Shown in pieces: positions 1 to 39,265 of a stretch of 64,000 nt of DNA (position 1 is its first letter; every line of letters starts with the position of its first letter). Position numbers and translations under genes: made by a program. The DNA comes from an uncultured virus (IMG/VR IMGVR_UViG_3300037237_000057) (taxonomy: Duplodnaviria > Heunggongvirae > Uroviricota > Caudoviricetes): the IMG/VR virus record IMGVR_UViG_3300037237_000057; one strand, given 5' to 3'. The notes below the pieces were generated by a model. The model saw only the letters and a list, made by a program, of their open reading frames with translations. It made no database searches and was not told where the DNA came from.

Positions 1-442
1 TAGCGTAGTTGTAGACATTCGTGCCCAATTCAAGCGGAGTGGCGAAAGTCCCCGCCGTTATTGTGTGTAAATCTAGCTGTGGGCTAGCAACCCCGCCGAT
101 ATTGACATTGCCTGTGGTAAGAGAAGCAGCTTTCACAGCCCCCGCTTGCGTCACTGTAAACGGATCAGCGGAAATCAAACCTGTAGTGGGATCAATTGTT
201 CCGTTACCAATGCCCACCGTTGCGTTCTGATCAACAGTCAGAACCGGGGTCGATGCGGTTCCTATTTGTATCTGATATGCCGGGGTGAAATCAGCAAGAT
301 CAGAGTCCAAGAATCCAGCGAATCCATACAGTTGATTAGCGTAGTTGTAGACATTCGTGCCCAATTCAAGCGGAGTGGCGAAAGTCCCCGCCGTTATTGT
401 GTGTAAATCTAGCTGTGGGCTAGCAACCCCGCCGATATTGAC
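1..442. repeat. Exact 106-bp direct repeat (1-106 and 337-442), period 336 bp, in frame in the fibre gene
   Basis: Base-by-base identity TAGCGTAGTT...GATATTGAC. The copy at 1-106 is cut by the window edge. Confidence 0.95.
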
Positions 443-24170: not shown

Positions 24171-28026
<3,856 letters not shown>

Positions 28027-28605
28027 TTAGAAGTTCTTCCACTCGTCAGCGTCGATCGTGGGCGGCTCTGTAATCTTGCGCACGCGCTCCCGTATGACCT
28101 CATCATCAGGCGCGCGCTGAGTTACAACCTGGTGAGTCTCGGTGATCTGATGGGTAATGATGGTCTGTTCCTGAGCCCGGTAGATGCGCGGTGCCTCCTG
28201 CTGGGATGGGCCGCTCGATGCGTCTGGAACAAAGTTGCCGTCAATCAACAAGCCCACGCGCTGATAGCCAAGTTCAATGGCTTTGACCTTCGGTGTCGCC
28301 AGGGTGGGCGTCTCAATCAGCGTCTTGCGCGGGATCCGCACGACTTCCATGAGGCTCTTATCCAGCATCTCGACGTTGACCACCCTCTTCTTGGCGAGTT
28401 GCTTGTCCGCCTCCGCCGTGATGTTCCCCATCCTCTCGGTGATGAGTTCATGGATGGGCTTGCGGCGATAGAGTCCAACTCCTGCTTTCGAGGCGTAACC
28501 GGCTTCAACGGCTGCTTTCTCCACATCCCGGTATGAGCAGTAAGCGTCAACAAACTTGTATTCCTTAGCCGTGAGCGGCGGATTGTTTACTATGATCTCG
28601 CCCAT
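28027..28605 (-). CDS. terS: Terminase small subunit
   Basis: LTAKEYKFVDAY...AAVEAGYA HTH, immediately upstream of terL. Confidence 0.8.
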   Translation of the reverse strand: MGEIIVNNPPLTAKEYKFVDAYCSYRDVEKAAVEAGYASKAGVGLYRRKPIHELITERMGNITAEADKQLAKKRVVNVEMLDKSLMEVVRIPRKTLIETPTLATPKVKAIELGYQRVGLLIDGNFVPDASSGPSQQEAPRIYRAQEQTIITHQITETHQVVTQRAPDDEVIRERVRKITEPPTIDADEWKNF

Positions 28606-31600
28606 CAGATAACTCCCTTATCCTGTGCCGCCTCCGGCTGCTGGCTTGCCTCACCCATGGCCTTGTCGAACGCCTTGTAGAGTTTGTCCTGCTGTTCCTC
28701 GTCGGTCACTTTCTCGATGTCCCGCTCATGCCGATCAAGAATCGGCTCCATCTCCTCCCGCTCGTCCGCGGACGCCTTCTCCCACACGTTCAGCATTTGC
28801 TCAATTGTAAGGTTTTTGACGGCGCGGACAATAGGAGGCTCATCGGACTCCCGCTCAGCCCTGCGCACGTCCTTGTCTGTGACCTTGCCCTCGTCCACGT
28901 ACTTGTCAATCTGGGTTTGGTCTATGTCGCCGGTGCGGTACATCTCGGAGATGGCGTCGAGGGCTTGGTAGTGTGCGGTCTGCTCTGCCGTCTTGGTGCC
29001 GGGGGGTCGATTGGCCTGGTTGTACTCGCGGGCGGCATTGATGGCGGGACTGTTTTGAATGAATGCTGGCGCTGGCTGGAATCCGAGTTGACCGAGAGCG
29101 ACGTCGCCGGGGTGCTTCTTTGCTTCGGCCAGCATCTCTTGGAGCGATGGTCCTGAGCCCCGCTGCTGGAGAAGTTTCTCTGCGCCAGACACCGAGAACG
29201 GAATAGCTTGAGCCGCTGCCCAGCGGGAGAACTCGGCCAGTTGCTTCATAACTGGATCATCTTTGTGGCGAATCTCTGTTCCGTAGAAGTCTCGATTCTC
29301 GATAGCCTCGGCGGTCGCACCCCAGATTGGAGCCATCTTGTTGAGCACGGTCTTGCCTGGGGCGTTGGCGAAGGAGAATACATCCTTCATATACCCAGGG
29401 ATTGAGTGCCGCTCGCCGTTGGTTGTCTTCGGGTAGAAGTAGTCCTTCCATGTCTCCGGCTTCTTTCCAGTCCAGAGATAGTTCAGGACGCCGCCAAAGA
29501 GAGCGCTGACCAGAGGCAGAGCGATGCCGAATGCGAGGCGTGGAGTTACGCGCGGTATCTGTCCTGTGCCCGCACGTCCTGCGGCCTTGCCAACATCGGC
29601 CACCGCGCCACCTAGTTCCCGGTAGCTGCCAAAGTTCCACCCTACTGAGCGAGTCGAGAGGTTGAGAGCGTCTCTGACTCCCTTGTGCCAGAAGAGATTG
29701 TCATAGACCACCTGGCCAAAGCGGTTGTCGATCGAGTCCCACGCCTCCTGCATCCGCGAGCGCGTGAGGGTCTCAGTCCAGCCCTGCTTTTGTGCGCTGT
29801 CGAGAATGTCGTGGGCCATGCCGTAGAAGGCTCCGAGTTTCATCCGTGGCACATAGAAGTCCATGACGGGCGCGACCGCCGCATGGAGGATGGCTGCGGG
29901 GATCGGCGTGAGGCCTTCCAGTACCGCACCATTGCGCCATGCGTTGATAACCTTGTCGAGCGGTTTGAGTTCGATGGTGTTCTGGCGAATACGGCCGCCG
30001 GCTGATGCCAATGCTTTCGCTTCCTCGGCCATCTTTGCGTAGCTTCCGGGGGTCAGATATTCGCGCATGAGCCGGGAGCCATTGACCATCGTATGCAGCA
30101 GCGACGGAAAGACAGATGCGCCCTTGGCGAGCGATAACCCCGCGCGCAGGGGTTTACCCTCGGCGAGCTGTTGGATGCCCAAGGCAACGTCAGAGGTCGC
30201 GGCGTTGATGCTCGTGGTCGAAGCATGGAAGGCCGAGATGCCAAGCTGGAGAGCGTTAAGGTTCTGGTTGGCCCAGTTGAGCGTGTCGTAGATGGTGGAG
30301 CGGCCAGCCATGCCGCGAGAAACAAAGTTGTTGAAGATGCGCGCGGCCTCGGCGGGCGCGTAGTAGTGGCCGCGAATGTAAAGATGGCCCTCGTCGTCAT
30401 AGTTCTGGACGGTCCCGATGCGGTCGTCGAGCTGGGTCCAGCCCTCGGGTGGCTGCTTGCCAATGCGGACCATCTTCGCCGTGCCGGAGTCCTGCATCAT
30501 CTTCAATGTTTGGTGACCCATCAAGAACTGCGCCATCTCCGCGTACTTGGTCAGGAACGAATCGACGGGATTCCAACTGACCGGCTTGAATCCAAGGTCG
30601 ATACCGTCCTGCATGGTCGGGATGGTGCGCTGCTTGAGGAATGATCCTTTTCCCGCGAACGGCTTCTTGCCGGTGATGAGAGCCTTGATGGTGGCCGATA
30701 CCTGCGACGGGCGCTCCCAGATGTGCGGGAAGTAATTCTCGATGTAGTCTTGCAGGACTTCGGGCTTGAGCGCCTGGAGTTGGCCGCGCATGGAGTCGAA
30801 CGCGCCCTTGAAGAGATTGGCGAGAGCCTGGTCCCTGGGTGCCAGCGTGTCCACCCTGCCGGACTCGACGGCGTTCCAGAACTTCATGGAGTCGTCGCGG
30901 GTACGGGTGCGCCATTCCTTCGATGCGTCCTTGAGTTTGTGAATGGCGATAGCGACCTTGCGGTCCATCTCGCCGCGCGTCTCGCGCATCATGGCGCGCT
31001 GGGTGTCACCGTGGCCTGGGGCGTCGGAGAGCCAGTCGGCCATGCGGTCGCCAATGTCGGGGAATAGGCGGTTAAAGAGTTGGGGATCGGCAAAGCCGGT
31101 GTAGAACGTGCTACCAAGGTCGGACTTCTTTTGCTTGGCTTCGGCTGCGGACTTCTCCATGTTTGCAAGGTTCTCTTTCGCCGCATCAAGTTTCTCTTGA
31201 AGGAACTGCTTGTCTTTGGGTTCGGCGCGCTCCAAGTCCTGCTCGGTCTCTTCAATCTCTGCCTTGTACTGCCGCATCAGATTTGCGGTATCGAGTTCCT
31301 TTGGCGCGCGCGGCACAGATCGCGGCGTCGTTCCTGGGATGGTCGATGAGGGTTTCGAGAATGCCGCCGGGGCAGAGCGAAGTATCTTGTCGATGGCCGC
31401 TGGTTGGTTGAGAACAAGGAATTTACCATCACCGGGAACCTCGATGCGGATAAACTCGTCTGGGAATTTCTCTGGCCGCTGTTCTGGCTTCTTGAGATAC
31501 TCGTTCTTTTTGACGACAGCCTTCCAGTCGAGTACACCATTGACGCCGGGGACCGTCTCGTATTTTTCAAGCCACGCATCGCGTACAGGTTCAAGCGCCT

Positions 31601-34600
31601 TCATGAAATACTCGCCCTGATACTTCCACTTGTTCTGATCGGGATCGGTAACGAGCTTTTCTTCGGGCTCGGTGAGGGGCAACGCTTCACGGTGGGCGGT
31701 AGCCTCAACCTCATCATCATGCTGTTTGATTTCGCGCCGCAACTTTTCGGCTGTGTTGACTAAATTGTCCGCGCCACCCCATGAGTGAACTTCTTTCTTG
31801 ATCTCGTCGAGTTCTTTTCGTGCGGCGCTGAGTTCCTTCTTTTCAGATAATCCCATCAGAGCTTCGGCATTCCGAGTTGCCGTCTTCGTGGCTATCAACT
31901 TGCGAATCTCTTCCTGCCTGGAATTGTTCTTTTCGATGCGGCTCTCGATCTCGGCCAACTGTGCGACTCTCTGCTCATGCACCGACGGTCCATCCGTGCC
32001 TGGTGCGACTGCCTTAGCCTCGGCCTTCACTACCGCTGGAGCTATAGGCTTCATCCCCGCGCGCTCGCGCGCCGCCGCCGAGAATGTAGGCTTGGTGGGC
32101 GCAGGTTTCGCCTCCATCACCTTTGCATCATCTGGCGTCATGGCGGTTGCGCCGGAGCCGCGCATGGTCTGACTGAGAACCTTGGCTTTATCGAAGAGGT
32201 CTTTGTCTTTCTTAAGAGTCTCAACGTCCTTGGTCCAATCTGCTAGCGTCTGCAACCGGATAGCGCCAATCTTCGCATTTTCGAGGTTGCTGAAATTATT
32301 GCTGGCAACTAAGCCACTGGCCACGTGGGACACGTCGTAGGTTCCCTTGTTGACGATCGCCTTATGCGCAACCAGACCTCCTAGTCCCTCACCTTTGATT
32401 GGCGCCATCGCTCCCTTCGGACCCTGCGGAGTGAATGTCGTAGGTTTGAACTGCGCAGCCTTAAGTTTGTCCCGCATCTCTGCGGTGAATCGCGTCTGGA
32501 GTTCGGTAGTACGGGCACGCTCTTTGTCGGCGGTCTCGCGCTTGGCTAATTCATCCGCCTTGGTTGCCGCCTCGCGCTCAGACTTATCTTTGGCTCTTGC
32601 CTCGAACTCATCCTTGGCTGCTTTGTTGAATGAGGTCCAACGATCCTCTTTCTCGATGCCAGAACGGTCGAGCACACTCTCCCATCCCGCCTTGGCAAGA
32701 TCGTGAATCTTGCCGATCTTCAACCGTCCATTGTCCCACGTCATCTGATAGCGCCCATCGCGGATGATTAGCTGGTCGCCCTCAATGATGGCTGGCTTGT
32801 CTTTCTCCTGGTATGTGCGGAGGGTTCGCTCGATGTCCTCGCGCTGGCCGCCGCGTTCCGGCTGTGCAGAGCCGATGGTGATGTCTGAGGGTTCAGTTTT
32901 CTTGCCGCCGCCTTCATCGCCCTTCCGAACGGGTCGTCCTCCGGGTTCGTGTACTGGATGAACATCGCTCCCTGCATTTTCTTTCTCCTTCCCTTCAACC
33001 GACTGCGCGTAGTCGTGCTCCGTCTTGGAAACGACCCACTCCGTTCCGTCTGCACCGTGGATGCGATAGGACGGAACCTTGATGCCAGCCTTTTGCTGTG
33101 CGCGGAGTTCGTTGTACTTAATCGTGGTCGGATGGCTCTGGTTCCCGGTTGGCACTCCGGCCCGGCGCATCGCTCCCAGTTCGCGGTCCAACTTTCTCTC
33201 TGCTGCATCGTCCTGGACCTGCTTGATGGACGTGGTTCCCCCGCCCGCCATCCGTTCGTCGATGATCTGGCGACGGGTGAGAACTTGGCCGGATTCGCGC
33301 CTAACCTGGGTATCGAGGTACTTGTCGGCCTTCGCTTGCTGGGCGCGCTTGAACCGCTCAGTGAGAGATTCTGGCTTCTTCGGTGTGGACGCTACTGTCG
33401 GAGATTCATTGGACTTAGGTTCTCCGCCGCCGATTTGGTCTGTACGCGCCGGGCGCTCTGCAATCTTCGCCCGGGCCGTCTTCGAGAACTGCGGCCCCTT
33501 TTCCGCAATCTCAACAGGCTTTTCAACAGGGGCTACTTCTTCCTTGCGATTCTCTGCCCCGCCCGGCTTTTCGACGGCGCTTTCTCGGGGAGCTTCAGCC
33601 CCTTGCTGCTGTCCTGCCACTCCTTCGCGCCCGCCGCCCCCAGGGCTTTCTTTGCGCTCGGGGTGTACAGCCATCTCCGCTGGCTTTCCGACTTCGCTGG
33701 CATTGGCTTTTTCCTCCTTGGGAATGTTTGCAGTTGCACCGGCAGGCTGCTCTGGGCTGTTCCGCTGTTCATGTCCCGGCTCCTTCGCCAGAGTCCCGTC
33801 GAGATCCACGTAGAGAGCTTTCCCCGCTGGAACCTCCGGCATTTGAAACGGCTTATCTTGATTTGTCGATACGTTGACCTCGTTATCGAGCAGTGCGCCG
33901 AAGTCATGACCCTTGACGTTGGTTACGGGGATGTCGCCAAGCCCGTTCTTCTGGACCCACACGGTAACCTCGGGGTCGCCAGCGCGCGCAGTGAATATCT
34001 TGACGGGGATTCCCTTGGCCGCGAGAGCCTTGATCTGCTCTACGCGCGTGGTCAGCGCTGGGCCTGGGGGCGTCTGTGGGACGTTGGCGGTTGCATCGGC
34101 GGGCGTGATGTCCTTGCCGTTGGCTAGAACCGAACCCTTGAGCGTGTTGACCATCCACCGGCCGCCGTTGGGTTCGTTGGGGTTTCCGCCCTTGATGGTG
34201 CCTGCGGTGCCGTCCTTGAGGGTGACAGGCGTTCCCTTGGTGAGTGGCTTGGCTGGCGCAGGGTTGCCGAGTTGCGTTTGATCCTTGGACTCTGACAGCG
34301 CGGCGCGGCCTTGGTTCTCCGGTTGCTTGGCGTCCTGAGCCTTGGCTTTATCCATGGCGGCCTTGATCTGCGCGCCGAGGTCGTCAACCTCCTTCTGAGC
34401 GGCCTTGTGCTGCCAGGTTCCGGGCTTTGCCGCGTCAAGGTCTGCCTGCGCCTCTTTCTGCTGGGCGTAGAGGTCGTCCGTCTCCTTCATAGCCTTGGCG
34501 ACCGCCGGGCCCGGGATCACCTGCAACTCTGAAACCTGATTCGGTTCACCGGGCTTGCCGGTCTGCACGCCATATTGAGGGATGTCCAGACCGTTATTGT

Positions 34601-36224
34601 CGATCTTGTCCTTCTGGACCACCGGCAACTGAGACTCGATGGCCTGCTGGACAGCGGGCACAGCGTCGGGGTTCGGAGCGACCACGCGCACACCGAGATT
34701 GTCGATGTTGGTCTCGGGGGGCTTGCCGCGGTCGTCCTTGTTCTCCATCGAGTCTGTGGACTTCACGCGCGGGCCGACGACTTCGGCGCCGGGAACGGCG
34801 GCGGCCACCTGATGCGCGGCCTGCTCCAATACGGGTTTCTGATCTTGCGCCGACTGGCGGAGTTCGGCGGGTTCGCCGCTGGCCTGTACCGCTGGACGCT
34901 GGCCCGCTTCTGGAGCGGCTGGGGCGTTTGGCGCTACGGAGGGGGGAATGGTCACCGGGGGTGCCTGCGGCGCGGCCTGGGGCGATTCTGGGGCAGGTTG
35001 GATATTGGATGGCGGGGCAACCATCACGGCGGCGCTGTTTGGCTGCGGCGGGAGCGGCGGAGTTGGCACTGGCGGCGGAACGATCTTTGGGATGATCGGC
35101 TTGGCTTTGCCTGCTGTCTCCCGTGGAGCTGGAAGGCCGGGACGATTAATTAGAGCATTGCCCTCGGCATCGACCACGACGCCTTTGTCTGCGGGGATCT
35201 CTGCGGGAGGCATGAATTGTGTTGGCGGCGTGGTGCGCTCGACGGCGGTGCTGGGATTGACGGGGGGCGGTGAGTTCTGCGGATTCGGCGGAGCCTCGCC
35301 CGCAGTGGTCGCCGGGAGTTGCGGCGCGGCTGCTTTTGGTAGCGGCAGTGTCGGCGTGTCGTCCGGAAACTCTACCGGAGGCTTCGCTCCAGCTCCGAGT
35401 TGCAGCGGCTCGTTCGGAAACTCCACCGGAGGCGTGGAAGGCTCGCTGACAGATGGGCGGCCTGTGTCTACCGGGAAAGCGTCATGCAATGCACCGAATC
35501 CCGTCAGGACGGTCACAAGCGCGCCGAGTCCCGTCTCTACCGCAAACTTCGCCGCCTCGGGATTGTCGCCGTTCTTGTGGGCCTCATACGCGGCTTCGGC
35601 GCTGTCGTATGTTCCCTTAGCCGCCTGTGTCGAGTAGAGTGCCATCAGCGGCTTCGCTTCGGGCAGCGCCGCCAACTGAGCTAATCCAGAGTAGCTCGTC
35701 ATCGGCTGAATGAATTGGTTGGCCCCCTGAAGTCCCTTGACGACATAGGGGTTATCGCCAGACTTCAGGGCGGCAGCAACTCGTGGATGCTGTGCCGAGA
35801 ATTGAGCCTGAGTCTGCGCCGTTCTCGCTTGAGCCTCTGGCGTCTCCGCCATGTTTGTCGGCGCGGTTAAGGCGTCCGGCAACTGCGGCAGGGATTCTCT
35901 GTTCTGCTGGTAGGTTGGTGACGATTCAGATTCGGTAGGCTGGAGATGCAGCGCCTGAGCCACTCCCGGCATCTCGGTATTGATCGATCTGCCGATAACA
36001 CTATTTGCGATTGATTCCCGCGCGCGCTGAGACCATGTGAGCGGGGGCGCGGCGGAGACCGTATCCTGCGGGCGCATGGGAGTTGGATGCGTGGAGATGG
36101 ATGATGGCTGCGAGGTCGGAGCTGCTTTAGGCAATGGCATTGCCGTGCTGTCGTCGAACGTAACTCCAGCGCTTTGGATTGGAGTTGCTGTCGTCTCGTC
36201 AAACTGGACCGCGCTGGTTGACAT
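28605..36224 (-). CDS. Giant internal virion (ejection)/polyvalent protein with RelA/SpoT-like and permuted HAD domains
   Basis: 2539 aa, last of three helical Ala/Gln-rich ORFs after the tail genes. Has N-terminal xFDxx repeats, Pro-rich linkers, a helical C-terminal region and embedded enzyme motifs. Confidence 0.75.
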   Translation of the reverse strand: MSTSAVQFDETTATPIQSAGVTFDDSTAMPLPKAAPTSQPSSISTHPTPMRPQDTVSAAPPLTWSQRARESIANSVIGRSINTEMPGVAQALHLQPTESESSPTYQQNRESLPQLPDALTAPTNMAETPEAQARTAQTQAQFSAQHPRVAAALKSGDNPYVVKGLQGANQFIQPMTSYSGLAQLAALPEAKPLMALYSTQAAKGTYDSAEAAYEAHKNGDNPEAAKFAVETGLGALVTVLTGFGALHDAFPVDTGRPSVSEPSTPPVEFPNEPLQLGAGAKPPVEFPDDTPTLPLPKAAAPQLPATTAGEAPPNPQNSPPPVNPSTAVERTTPPTQFMPPAEIPADKGVVVDAEGNALINRPGLPAPRETAGKAKPIIPKIVPPPVPTPPLPPQPNSAAVMVAPPSNIQPAPESPQAAPQAPPVTIPPSVAPNAPAAPEAGQRPAVQASGEPAELRQSAQDQKPVLEQAAHQVAAAVPGAEVVGPRVKSTDSMENKDDRGKPPETNIDNLGVRVVAPNPDAVPAVQQAIESQLPVVQKDKIDNNGLDIPQYGVQTGKPGEPNQVSELQVIPGPAVAKAMKETDDLYAQQKEAQADLDAAKPGTWQHKAAQKEVDDLGAQIKAAMDKAKAQDAKQPENQGRAALSESKDQTQLGNPAPAKPLTKGTPVTLKDGTAGTIKGGNPNEPNGGRWMVNTLKGSVLANGKDITPADATANVPQTPPGPALTTRVEQIKALAAKGIPVKIFTARAGDPEVTVWVQKNGLGDIPVTNVKGHDFGALLDNEVNVSTNQDKPFQMPEVPAGKALYVDLDGTLAKEPGHEQRNSPEQPAGATANIPKEEKANASEVGKPAEMAVHPERKESPGGGGREGVAGQQQGAEAPRESAVEKPGGAENRKEEVAPVEKPVEIAEKGPQFSKTARAKIAERPARTDQIGGGEPKSNESPTVASTPKKPESLTERFKRAQQAKADKYLDTQVRRESGQVLTRRQIIDERMAGGGTTSIKQVQDDAAERKLDRELGAMRRAGVPTGNQSHPTTIKYNELRAQQKAGIKVPSYRIHGADGTEWVVSKTEHDYAQSVEGKEKENAGSDVHPVHEPGGRPVRKGDEGGGKKTEPSDITIGSAQPERGGQREDIERTLRTYQEKDKPAIIEGDQLIIRDGRYQMTWDNGRLKIGKIHDLAKAGWESVLDRSGIEKEDRWTSFNKAAKDEFEARAKDKSEREAATKADELAKRETADKERARTTELQTRFTAEMRDKLKAAQFKPTTFTPQGPKGAMAPIKGEGLGGLVAHKAIVNKGTYDVSHVASGLVASNNFSNLENAKIGAIRLQTLADWTKDVETLKKDKDLFDKAKVLSQTMRGSGATAMTPDDAKVMEAKPAPTKPTFSAAARERAGMKPIAPAVVKAEAKAVAPGTDGPSVHEQRVAQLAEIESRIEKNNSRQEEIRKLIATKTATRNAEALMGLSEKKELSAARKELDEIKKEVHSWGGADNLVNTAEKLRREIKQHDDEVEATAHREALPLTEPEEKLVTDPDQNKWKYQGEYFMKALEPVRDAWLEKYETVPGVNGVLDWKAVVKKNEYLKKPEQRPEKFPDEFIRIEVPGDGKFLVLNQPAAIDKILRSAPAAFSKPSSTIPGTTPRSVPRAPKELDTANLMRQYKAEIEETEQDLERAEPKDKQFLQEKLDAAKENLANMEKSAAEAKQKKSDLGSTFYTGFADPQLFNRLFPDIGDRMADWLSDAPGHGDTQRAMMRETRGEMDRKVAIAIHKLKDASKEWRTRTRDDSMKFWNAVESGRVDTLAPRDQALANLFKGAFDSMRGQLQALKPEVLQDYIENYFPHIWERPSQVSATIKALITGKKPFAGKGSFLKQRTIPTMQDGIDLGFKPVSWNPVDSFLTKYAEMAQFLMGHQTLKMMQDSGTAKMVRIGKQPPEGWTQLDDRIGTVQNYDDEGHLYIRGHYYAPAEAARIFNNFVSRGMAGRSTIYDTLNWANQNLNALQLGISAFHASTTSINAATSDVALGIQQLAEGKPLRAGLSLAKGASVFPSLLHTMVNGSRLMREYLTPGSYAKMAEEAKALASAGGRIRQNTIELKPLDKVINAWRNGAVLEGLTPIPAAILHAAVAPVMDFYVPRMKLGAFYGMAHDILDSAQKQGWTETLTRSRMQEAWDSIDNRFGQVVYDNLFWHKGVRDALNLSTRSVGWNFGSYRELGGAVADVGKAAGRAGTGQIPRVTPRLAFGIALPLVSALFGGVLNYLWTGKKPETWKDYFYPKTTNGERHSIPGYMKDVFSFANAPGKTVLNKMAPIWGATAEAIENRDFYGTEIRHKDDPVMKQLAEFSRWAAAQAIPFSVSGAEKLLQQRGSGPSLQEMLAEAKKHPGDVALGQLGFQPAPAFIQNSPAINAAREYNQANRPPGTKTAEQTAHYQALDAISEMYRTGDIDQTQIDKYVDEGKVTDKDVRRAERESDEPPIVRAVKNLTIEQMLNVWEKASADEREEMEPILDRHERDIEKVTDEEQQDKLYKAFDKAMGEASQQPEAAQDKGVI

Positions 36225-37815: not shown

Positions 37816-38829
37816 TTAGCTCCCTGCTCCTACAAGTCTTTCGCCAATCTGGCCCCACCGCTCCATACTCACGAGGCGTTCAGCATCACCTACCCCCAAC
37901 GACCATAGGCCCTCGGCCATGTATGTATGTGACCCATCCGTGATTACGTTGTACACGGTATCCTCGCCGTCCTGGTCGATGTGCACCACCGTAGCCGCGC
38001 CGGAACTCGTCGAGATGGTCTTGAATAGAGACCTCGACGCCACGGTAAAGCCGCCCTTGGGCAGCGCAAACGCATGGACAGGAGAGCACCGGATGACATA
38101 TCCGCCGCTGACCTCGACGCGAATAACTCTGCTCTTTGCGGTCTGAATCTCCTCGATGACCTGAGATTCCCCATCGATGCCCTCGATCTCGTCTCCGACA
38201 ACAAGACTCTCCACCGCCCGGTGATTTCCGTCCGCCATCAAGTAGAGCGTTCCCTTGGCTGGGCAGAATGCCGTGATAGCCTGGCCGCCGCCAGTAATGA
38301 GTCCTTGACCCAACTCGTCGAGGAAGCTGGGTGTCTGCGCGGCCTGCTCGCCAACGCTGGCTTGTCCCTGCGCCTCATTTGCTTCCTGAGACCCAAGCGA
38401 ATTCTGTTCGGCAACGATCTGATTTCCGCCACTGAGCACGTCCTGGCCGTACTGGGCACCAGATGCGAGTCTGCTTTGAGTGGCTCCAGCCTCTTGCGTC
38501 CCCATGGTCCGCTGGGCCTGCGCGGCCTCAGCCTCGCCCGCAGCTACGCCGGCGCTGGCATTCTGGCCCGTGCGCTGCGCCTGCTGCTGGGTCTTCGCCG
38601 CCGCTCCCGCGGCTGTCGCATCAGCGGTCCCTGAAAGTTGCTGATTCTCAACCGTCTGCGCCTGGCCACCCTGCACGTAGGGATTGTTAGCCGCAAACTT
38701 GGCGAGCTGCGACTGCTGCGTCCCGATGTCGGCTTGCTCGGCTGCCTGCGATGCGTTTGCCGCCGCCGTCTCGGTTGCAGTGTTAGCCGTCTCGGTCGAT
38801 TCAATCTGTCCCTGCTGGGCTCGTGACAT
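37816..38829 (-). CDS. Internal virion (ejection) protein with C-terminal Hint domain
   Basis: 188-aa Ala/Gln-rich part, then CPAKGTLYLMADG...VESLVVGD (block A), CSPVHAF (block B) and VYNVITDGSHTYMAEGLWS (blocks F/G). Confidence 0.8.
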   Translation of the reverse strand: MSRAQQGQIESTETANTATETAAANASQAAEQADIGTQQSQLAKFAANNPYVQGGQAQTVENQQLSGTADATAAGAAAKTQQQAQRTGQNASAGVAAGEAEAAQAQRTMGTQEAGATQSRLASGAQYGQDVLSGGNQIVAEQNSLGSQEANEAQGQASVGEQAAQTPSFLDELGQGLITGGGQAITAFCPAKGTLYLMADGNHRAVESLVVGDEIEGIDGESQVIEEIQTAKSRVIRVEVSGGYVIRCSPVHAFALPKGGFTVASRSLFKTISTSSGAATVVHIDQDGEDTVYNVITDGSHTYMAEGLWSLGVGDAERLVSMERWGQIGERLVGAGS

Positions 38830-38833
38830 TGGT

Positions 38834-39265
38834 TTAACCCTCCAAATCCCTATAGAAGTGTGCCAGACGGTCATCGTTCTGGATGAATCCCGCCTTGTCG
38901 AGCGGCTTGCCAATCTGATCTCTTAGCCCAATCGGTACATCGCAGTGGATCCCGCGATAACCGAGCCACGAGAGCACGCCGACTAAACCATCTATATCCC
39001 GCCGCGCGAATGCCGTAGCCCTCGGGTCACAGCCCGCAAACATCAACTCAGCCCGGCGCTCTACCCAAATGGCCTGCACCGGGTCCTCGGACCCTTCCGT
39101 GACTCCCACCAGCGCAACCGGGACCTGCTGCGTAAGACAGCCGTTCCTGTCGAAGAACACGGGCAGCGGGTAATTCGTCCCATCCCGCTCGTTCTGTTCT
39201 TTATGAAACTGCCGGATGAGGCAGAGATTCTCCGGCTTGGCTGGTCTCAGTATGATCCTGTTCAC
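38834..39265 (-). CDS. Hypothetical, possibly GNAT-fold virion assembly protein
   Basis: IILRPAKPENL start and L..AGF end; sits before the ejection genes as in other podoviruses. Confidence 0.5.
   Translation of the reverse strand: MNRIILRPAKPENLCLIRQFHKEQNERDGTNYPLPVFFDRNGCLTQQVPVALVGVTEGSEDPVQAIWVERRAELMFAGCDPRATAFARRDIDGLVGVLSWLGYRGIHCDVPIGLRDQIGKPLDKAGFIQNDDRLAHFYRDLEG

Follow-up and report, generated by a model that had tools for sequence, protein, structure and literature searches.

We identified a circularly permuted, capless HAD domain, with the strand that carries the predicted nucleophile at its C-terminal end, inside a 2,539-residue polyvalent protein of an uncultured virus of the class Caudoviricetes. 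The HAD superfamily is among the largest known for enzymes, and its members are described as beginning with this strand. We regard the permutation of the domain as virtually certain. The first-pass annotation had claimed a natural circular permutation with the nucleophile strand last, and this claim is supported by the sequence (a two-piece profile match in swapped order), by conservation, by selection, and by two structural models. The features on which the argument draws lie in the window, by which we mean the whole 64,000-nt stretch of DNA that was analyzed:

28605..36224, minus strand: host ORF of the HAD domain, encoding the 2,539-residue polyvalent protein
26467..28605, minus strand: terminase small and large subunit genes, directly downstream of the giant ORF
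34305..34862, minus strand: RelA/SpoT small-alarmone-synthetase-fold domain (aa about 455 to 640), upstream of the barrel
34092..34241, minus strand: SH3/Tudor-like beta barrel (aa about 662 to 711; model strands and profile), directly upstream of the HAD domain
33786..34070, minus strand: circularly permuted capless HAD domain (aa 719 to 813), in the order flap-return/helix, II, III, IV, linker, I
33984..33998, minus strand: motif II, IFTAR (aa 743 to 747), with Thr745 and Arg747
33912..33926, minus strand: motif III, VTNVK (aa 767 to 771), with Lys771
33882..33893, minus strand: motif IV, LLDN (aa 778 to 781), with Asp780 and with Asn781 where the normal-order family has Asp
33816..33881, minus strand: linker from the old C-terminus to the old N-terminus, with 27 residues from the motif IV Asp to the motif I Asp
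33786..33815, minus strand: displaced motif I strand, LYVDLDGTLA (aa 804 to 813), with Asp807 as predicted nucleophile and Asp809 as predicted acid/base
33533..33703, minus strand: nested 56-codon gene in the +1 frame (longer start at 33772), with an AAGGAGG Shine-Dalgarno sequence, starting about 80 nt past motif I

All four motifs lie in the order II-III-IV-I and at the positions that the first-pass annotation had given. Across all six reading frames, the 69,211-nt genome (one contig) that carries the giant ORF contains each of them only here, and together they form a short folded island with low-complexity sequence on both sides. When a profile built from 8 normal-order relatives was compared with the giant protein, profile positions 36 to 110 aligned to aa 722 to 791 (E = 3.4e-15) and positions 15 to 32 aligned downstream of them, in swapped order, to aa 805 to 822 (2.0 bits, E = 0.01). 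An hhalign comparison of the normal-order family with the HAD domain gave a probability of 99.4 across motifs II to IV. Given its motif order, we class the domain as a permuted HAD homologue and not as a regular member of the superfamily. Because the domain is cut directly after D-x-D-x-T-L-A, its new N-terminus begins in the flap, and the flap in which the new chain ends sit is presumably the C1 cap insertion site of HAD anatomy.

The low score of the second profile piece taken alone would fit an assembly error or a chance motif. We consider this explanation refuted and its remaining probability negligible, since the order is found in 32 distinct sequences, the pattern [VI]D[LF]DGT appeared in 0 of 2,000 shuffles of the giant protein, and independent assemblies keep the order; the misassembly that the first-pass annotation had named as fatal to its reading thus did not occur. 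Positions 33300 to 34600 are present unbroken and with 0 differences in a 22-kb contig from another study; a contig of 473 nt, from a third study, spans the HAD domain, and a variant contig with 18 differences retains the motif order. No assembly joints fell across the HAD stretch in 4 of the 4 runs examined, and the contigs of one RNA run (X15) cover only pieces of it. Peat and permafrost metagenomes were the best sources of matching DNA.

Structure prediction agreed with a permuted HAD core. The AlphaFold check proposed in the first-pass annotation yielded, from a 12-row alignment, an AF2 model of the segment with pLDDT 89.5 and pTM 0.81 (three of the five models were at 73 to 75) and with strands at residues 28 to 31, 62 to 66, and 90 to 94, where the segment number plus 713 gives the protein number. 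HADs headed the list in an order-dependent VIA search with this model. The best match was BT0820 (Z 4.8, rmsd 3.1, 79 residues aligned) and the second was the T4 Pnkp phosphatase (Z 4.5), with MDP-1 and Scp1 also listed. Nearly all of the matches ended at model residues 75 to 88, short of motif I. Their Z-scores are low (<5), which speaks against the reading, but low values are expected, since an order-dependent search cannot match the central strand, and the values of up to 4.8 over model residues 1 to 88 support the predicted Rossmannoid core fold. Foldseek, the other structural check that had been proposed, returned nothing from the PDB or the viral models at E ≤ 0.001.

We also modeled residues 1 to 77 and 78 to 107 as separate chains with Mg. 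This two-piece model scored 0.88 (best control, 0.02), a result that may arise from likeness to solved HADs and that speaks for compatibility of the pieces rather than proving the fold; of 157 solved pairs, 116 come up to the mark for this score, as do 2 of 215 mismatches, both counts being approximate. The runs agreed in at least 89% of contacts, with a partner pLDDT of at least 79, and the pLDDT of the first piece, 88-90 with its own partner, dropped to 57-60 with unrelated partners. Residues 90 to 94 touched residues 28 to 31 and 63 to 67 in parallel register, between the motif II and motif IV strands, Asp780 was in contact with Asp807, and N-terminal residues were in contact with the end of motif I. 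The permuted domain is thus predicted by modeling to fold into a normal HAD core with the motif I strand in the middle of the sheet. A DLDGT strand lying outside the Rossmannoid core, which would have undermined the earlier reading, was not what the model gave, as the strand packs into the sheet. That the pieces dock as separate chains also fits complementation between molecules, in which motif I of one would complete the core of another by domain swapping, and activity would then depend on oligomerization. We consider this highly improbable, since the linker is long enough for closure within one chain and AF2 folds the single chain confidently.

The permutation is not confined to one sequence. 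A search with the HAD segment gave 22 candidates, 8 of them normal-order small HADs, and the family is covered by 87 representatives. Profile scans found 20 loci in the viral collection (18 permuted and 2 normal) and 14 in metagenomes (10 permuted and 4 normal), some contigs being common to both collections. The pooled set held 252 core matches, 231 of them distinct, and 34 had motif I only downstream; removal of two tandem copies left 32 permuted domains. In the two that were removed (P0035 and P0068), the first motif I of the tandem is worn, and P0069, an unrelated repetitive protein, was left out as well. Motif I occurred within 150 aa upstream of the core in 0 of the 32 permuted domains. 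The spacing from motif IV to motif I was 27 residues in 25 of them (linker type A, that of the window's domain) and 29 in the other 7 (type B). All 8 matches among proteins of 1,396 to 4,444 aa were permuted, a count biased by the use of a permuted query.

Database searches located the relatives of the domain among small phage proteins. The permuted domain had no match among GenBank phages, and hence no cultured relative there, and the normal-order family is present in 16 to 22 GenBank records. GTDB genomes contributed 2 loci, which align to motifs II to IV only. Pfam and NCBIfam hold no family for the domain, the sole trace being one sub-threshold Cof match on motif I, and the NCBIfam scores of its relatives were far below the cut-off. 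An Atlas search with the domain returned unnamed viral clusters and weak Hydrolase_3 leads (<0.9). PDB sequence searches with a three-domain alignment and with a relative, P0118, gave no meaningful match, and the only PDB sequence match of the normal-order family was 1xpj (E = 5e-4).

The closest sequences belong to a family of small capless phage HADs of about 110 to 150 aa (PHROG 1238-like), which share 38 to 54% identity with the window's domain over motifs II to IV. Its members include a Burkholderia phage BcepSauron gene annotated "HAD hydrolase" and proteins of Ralstonia phage phiRSL1 and Rhizobium phages. They have the G-x-P flap return, FTAR, TNxK, and motif IV in common with the window's domain but carry motif I first, whereas the window's domain carries it last. 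We know of no function for this family. The nearest sequence family is formed by these small HADs and not by PNKP, which the first-pass annotation had named among HAD domains. In fold the domain also resembles the capless phosphatases BT0820 (PDB 2obb), VC0232 (PDB 1xpj), and EcbF-BcbF, which are standalone and of normal order. Among normal-order HADs, we also observed fusions to a polyvalent-type inorganic pyrophosphatase (P0028, P0035, P0041, P0068, and P0086) and to Clp protease and NUDIX domains (P0083 and P0095), and the L043 copy has motif I changed to YDVDGS and motif II to FTAK.

Normal and permuted forms occur at the same locus in closely related phages. A normal-order protein of L046/L048 aligned with the permuted, DD-type protein P0017 at 44% identity from the upstream domains into the HAD domain, interrupted by a gap of 22 residues that coincides with motif I; the gapped motif I piece aligned to the C-terminal end of P0017. 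Permuted L023 and normal-order L048 matched in 155 of 177 residues of their RelA/SpoT-fold domain and were 76% (TerS) and 80% (TerL) identical in their terminase subunits, and the cassette genes of both precede terS. Since two close phages thus carry the same cassette gene with one normal and one permuted HAD, the two forms look interchangeable. Normal-order HADs also share the cassette in P0090, P0118, P0119, P0188, and L048. The idea that an internal position requires the permutation was rejected, as several permuted domains end their protein 28 to 41 residues past motif I and normal-order copies lie inside other large proteins.

We infer that the permutation began with a tandem copy of the HAD within the cassette, after which the first copy would have lost motif I and the second motifs II to IV. 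Tandem double HADs make up 11 of 209 family proteins, and their spacing from motif IV to the next motif I (31 to 32 residues) is close to that of the permuted linkers, which would fit duplication and trimming. The composition of the type B linker may fit as well: by eye, it reads as a normal C-terminal tail followed by a stretch resembling the L048 sequence ahead of motif I. In the tree, the tandem proteins do not group as sisters of the permuted ones, so the route has a precedent but no direct intermediate. The permutation may have had one or two origins. When all permuted rows were constrained to group together in trees of the 75-column core, the constraint was not rejected (p-AU 0.45 with 18 versus 20 rows and 0.35 with 19 versus 9 rows). 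With the small normal-order proteins included, the window's clade stood apart from the DD-type permuted clade; without them, the two joined (94/99). Ten tandem double-HAD proteins of 224 to 260 aa were noted (P0027, P0101, P0103, P0104, P0106, P0107, and P0109-P0112), several of which have Glu for the nucleophile Asp in the second copy. The receiver (CheY-like) and HAD folds, both of the aspartyl-phosphate kind, are described as circular permutations of each other. That cut is ancient and gives the order IV-I-II-III, whereas the one in the window is recent and gives II-III-IV-I, with both forms in living sister phages.

The giant protein is large and multidomain, lies in the late gene block, and carries swappable conflict domains, which places it among the polyvalent proteins. 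A variable middle is followed by a conserved LPD38-like C-terminal region (aa about 1700 to 2530); an Atlas search with the C-terminal 830 residues scored 0.97, with 14 of 30 matches in LPD38 clusters and a recognition of 2147, below the 2300 mark. This region had no match in a Pfam search or among GenBank phages. The Pfam scan, which took 23 ORFs of the window, found no family in the giant protein and, in particular, no kinase or ligase domain. In the accessible text of Iyer et al. 2017 (PMC5512222), LPD38 is listed as phage-type only, and phage polyvalent proteins are likewise large late-gene proteins with variable domain cargo and an LPD38-like end. The main text of that paper mentions no HAD domain, phosphatase, or permutation. 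The label "ejection protein" used in the first-pass annotation is inferred from context. Since the gene lies just before terS/terL and has an LPD38-like end, entry of the HAD domain into the host with the phage DNA is plausible on sequence grounds.

Several other features of these genomes were recorded. A near-identical phage (L006, 7862-16345; 99% over aa 1 to 1709) has about 289 residues inserted near aa 1703 to 1709 of the giant protein. The window also encodes a Cpn60/GroEL-type chaperonin (24759-26477, plus strand; Pfam E = 2.9e-58), which is unusual in a 69-kb genome, and an ORF at 37816-38913 (minus strand) with a weak Hint-domain match over aa 217 to 268. Within window positions 1 to 360, the first 20 nt of the contig are repeated at position 337, which suggests a repeat near the contig start.

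Two small ORFs are nested in the giant gene in the +1 frame. The 56-codon gene listed above is conserved in L007, L009, L011, L012, and others. In comparisons with L043 and L045, 15 of 23 and 17 of 26 differences, respectively, are at third positions of the codons of the nested frame, so selection acts on the nested small protein. The second ORF, of 69 codons (32768-32977, minus strand), has an AAGGAG site and no PHROG or Pfam match. In L043-L046 and L048 (489-2552), the nested small gene is embedded in the first part of the cassette gene, here a standalone one, before the 2H and RelA/SpoT-fold domains.

The HAD domain belongs to a recurring cassette in the late gene block, ordered RelA/SpoT-fold domain, optional 2H domain, SH3-like barrel, and HAD, which also occurs as a separate gene of 400 to 690 aa. 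The first-pass annotation had mentioned neither the RelA/SpoT-fold nor the SH3-like neighbor, nor the change at Asn781. The barrel of the window's protein matched PHF19 in VIA (6wau, Z 8.0, rmsd 1.8 over 51 residues), and the RelA/SpoT-fold domain matched 5dec (Z 11.6, rmsd 3.9 over 162 residues), RelP in Foldseek (E = 2.9e-4), and a profile (E = 6.6e-12). R-x-K, D-x-x-G-x-R, and E-x-Q, which we take to be the RelA/SpoT synthetase motifs, are present in the window's domain, and the two histidines of intact-looking relatives are missing, so that it looks degenerate, as in the rest of its clade. Of the 23 permuted proteins with room for a RelA/SpoT-like domain upstream, 21 have one; the SH3-like barrel was detected in 17 of 31, and the 2H domain in 14 of 28 proteins (two of them weak or partial), the window's protein being without it. 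Relatives also carry ART, GGDEF, SNF2, and methylase domains. The recurring neighbors (RelA/SpoT fold, 2H/Acb1-like, InPase, NUDIX, and GGDEF) are nucleotide-handling domains.

We then asked whether the catalytic residues of the permuted domains are preserved. D-x-D, the motif II Ser/Thr, the Lys, and the motif IV Asp are kept in 32 of 32, although these rows were picked with the motif I pattern, so that conservation of D-x-D is partly built in. The 9 core-only rows comprise 8 normal-order sequences and 1 truncated one, and none is a permuted domain whose motif I is broken. In the window's domain, Asp807-Leu-Asp809-Gly-Thr811 matches the motif I signature D-x-D-x-T. The displaced motif I strand is the best-conserved part of the domain, with pN/pS of 0.12 over 12 residues, compared with 0.38 for the core and 0.58 for the linker (91 pairs, 14 sequences). 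Other positions have shifted. Motif IV reads DN in 18 of the 32 permuted domains, the window's included, versus 2 of 188 normal-order ones, and DD in 14 of 32 versus 184 of 188. Motif II Arg is Glu in 10 of the 32, and Arg747 is kept in the window's domain.

With Asn in place of the Mg-binding Asp, the enzyme of the window's clade may be weakened or dead, and the DN and Arg drift could reflect changed or lost catalysis. The permuted fold would then be real but serve as a binder of phosphorylated ligands or as a structural module, to which the degenerate state of the neighboring RelA/SpoT-fold domain would also be suited. We consider this rather unlikely, given that the window's domain keeps D-x-D, Thr, Arg, and Lys and that its motif I strand is under the constraint described above. 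Asn also occupies the equivalent position in human Scp1, which is described as an active HAD. The literature searched, including the accessible part of PMC7281111, did not contain confirmation of this precedent. On balance, we lean slightly toward a catalytically active HAD domain in the window's clade.

If the domain is active, its substrate is probably a nucleotide or RNA. A comparison with the T4 Pnkp 3'-phosphatase (PDB 5uj0 and 1ltq) bears on this point, as it has the catalytic set D-x-D, S/T, K, and metal ligand in common with the window's domain; its Mg ligands include Asp165 and Asp278 (PMC3592404). By motif alignment, Asn781 occupies the Asp278 position, and PHROG 415 gave a weak match. 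T4 Pnkp, however, has the normal order, a kinase fusion, and Asp278, whereas the window's domain is permuted, has Asn, and has no kinase partner that the Pfam scan found in its protein. Because of this likeness and the nucleotide-handling neighbors, a ribose phosphate on a signaling nucleotide or an RNA end is our best guess. Alternatively, the domain could be an active phosphatase on phosphoproteins or small sugar phosphates, like MDP-1, Scp1, and BT0820/EcbF, with the SH3-like barrel at the cap site choosing the target. The absence of a cap, the rank of BT0820 as top fold match with MDP-1 and Scp1 also listed, and the single PDB sequence match of the normal-order family, 1xpj, are in keeping with such an activity, but the recurring neighbor domains handle nucleotides, and we judge it quite improbable.

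Our overall reading, held with about even confidence, is that the permuted capless HAD is a likely Mg-dependent phosphatase acting on nucleotide or RNA-end phosphates after probable injection. The Asp807 strand is predicted to insert between the motif II and IV strands and so rebuild the active site, with the new chain ends at the flap, the usual insertion point of HAD caps; the site would be open, since there is no cap. By analogy with HAD chemistry, Asp807 would attack and take the phosphate with Asp809 as acid/base, Thr745 and Lys771 would hold the transition state, and the metal would be held by Asp807, the Asp809 carbonyl, and the motif IV residues Asp780 and Asn781. Alongside the other cassette domains, the enzyme may trim a 3' (or 2') phosphate from host signaling nucleotides or RNA ends.

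A broader and unlikely possibility is that injected phage polyproteins repeatedly rewire enzymes in this way, placing the catalytic first strand last and the chain ends at the cap site, and that the cassette is an undescribed injected kit for rewriting ribose 3'-phosphates on host alarmones, cyclic signals, or tRNA ends. If so, the SH3-like barrel and flanking chain would be a swappable cap, and the enzyme could switch on only after its last strand had been threaded out and folded.

The permuted HAD is apparently an undescribed topological variant of a well-known enzyme family, with a predicted function. A literature search that covered open papers found no natural permuted HAD, and the accessible parts of PMC2575518, PMC7824862, and PMC9503650 contain nothing on one. 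Because such domains are invisible to Pfam and Foldseek, they are missed in annotation. The cargo of polyvalent proteins gains a HAD domain and a recurring nucleotide-handling cassette. Since the permutation is recent and has living normal-order sisters at the same locus, it offers a clean natural experiment on the origin of permutations and on whether they change folding, activity, or delivery, and the sister phages that carry normal and permuted copies of one gene make any benefit of the rewiring directly testable.
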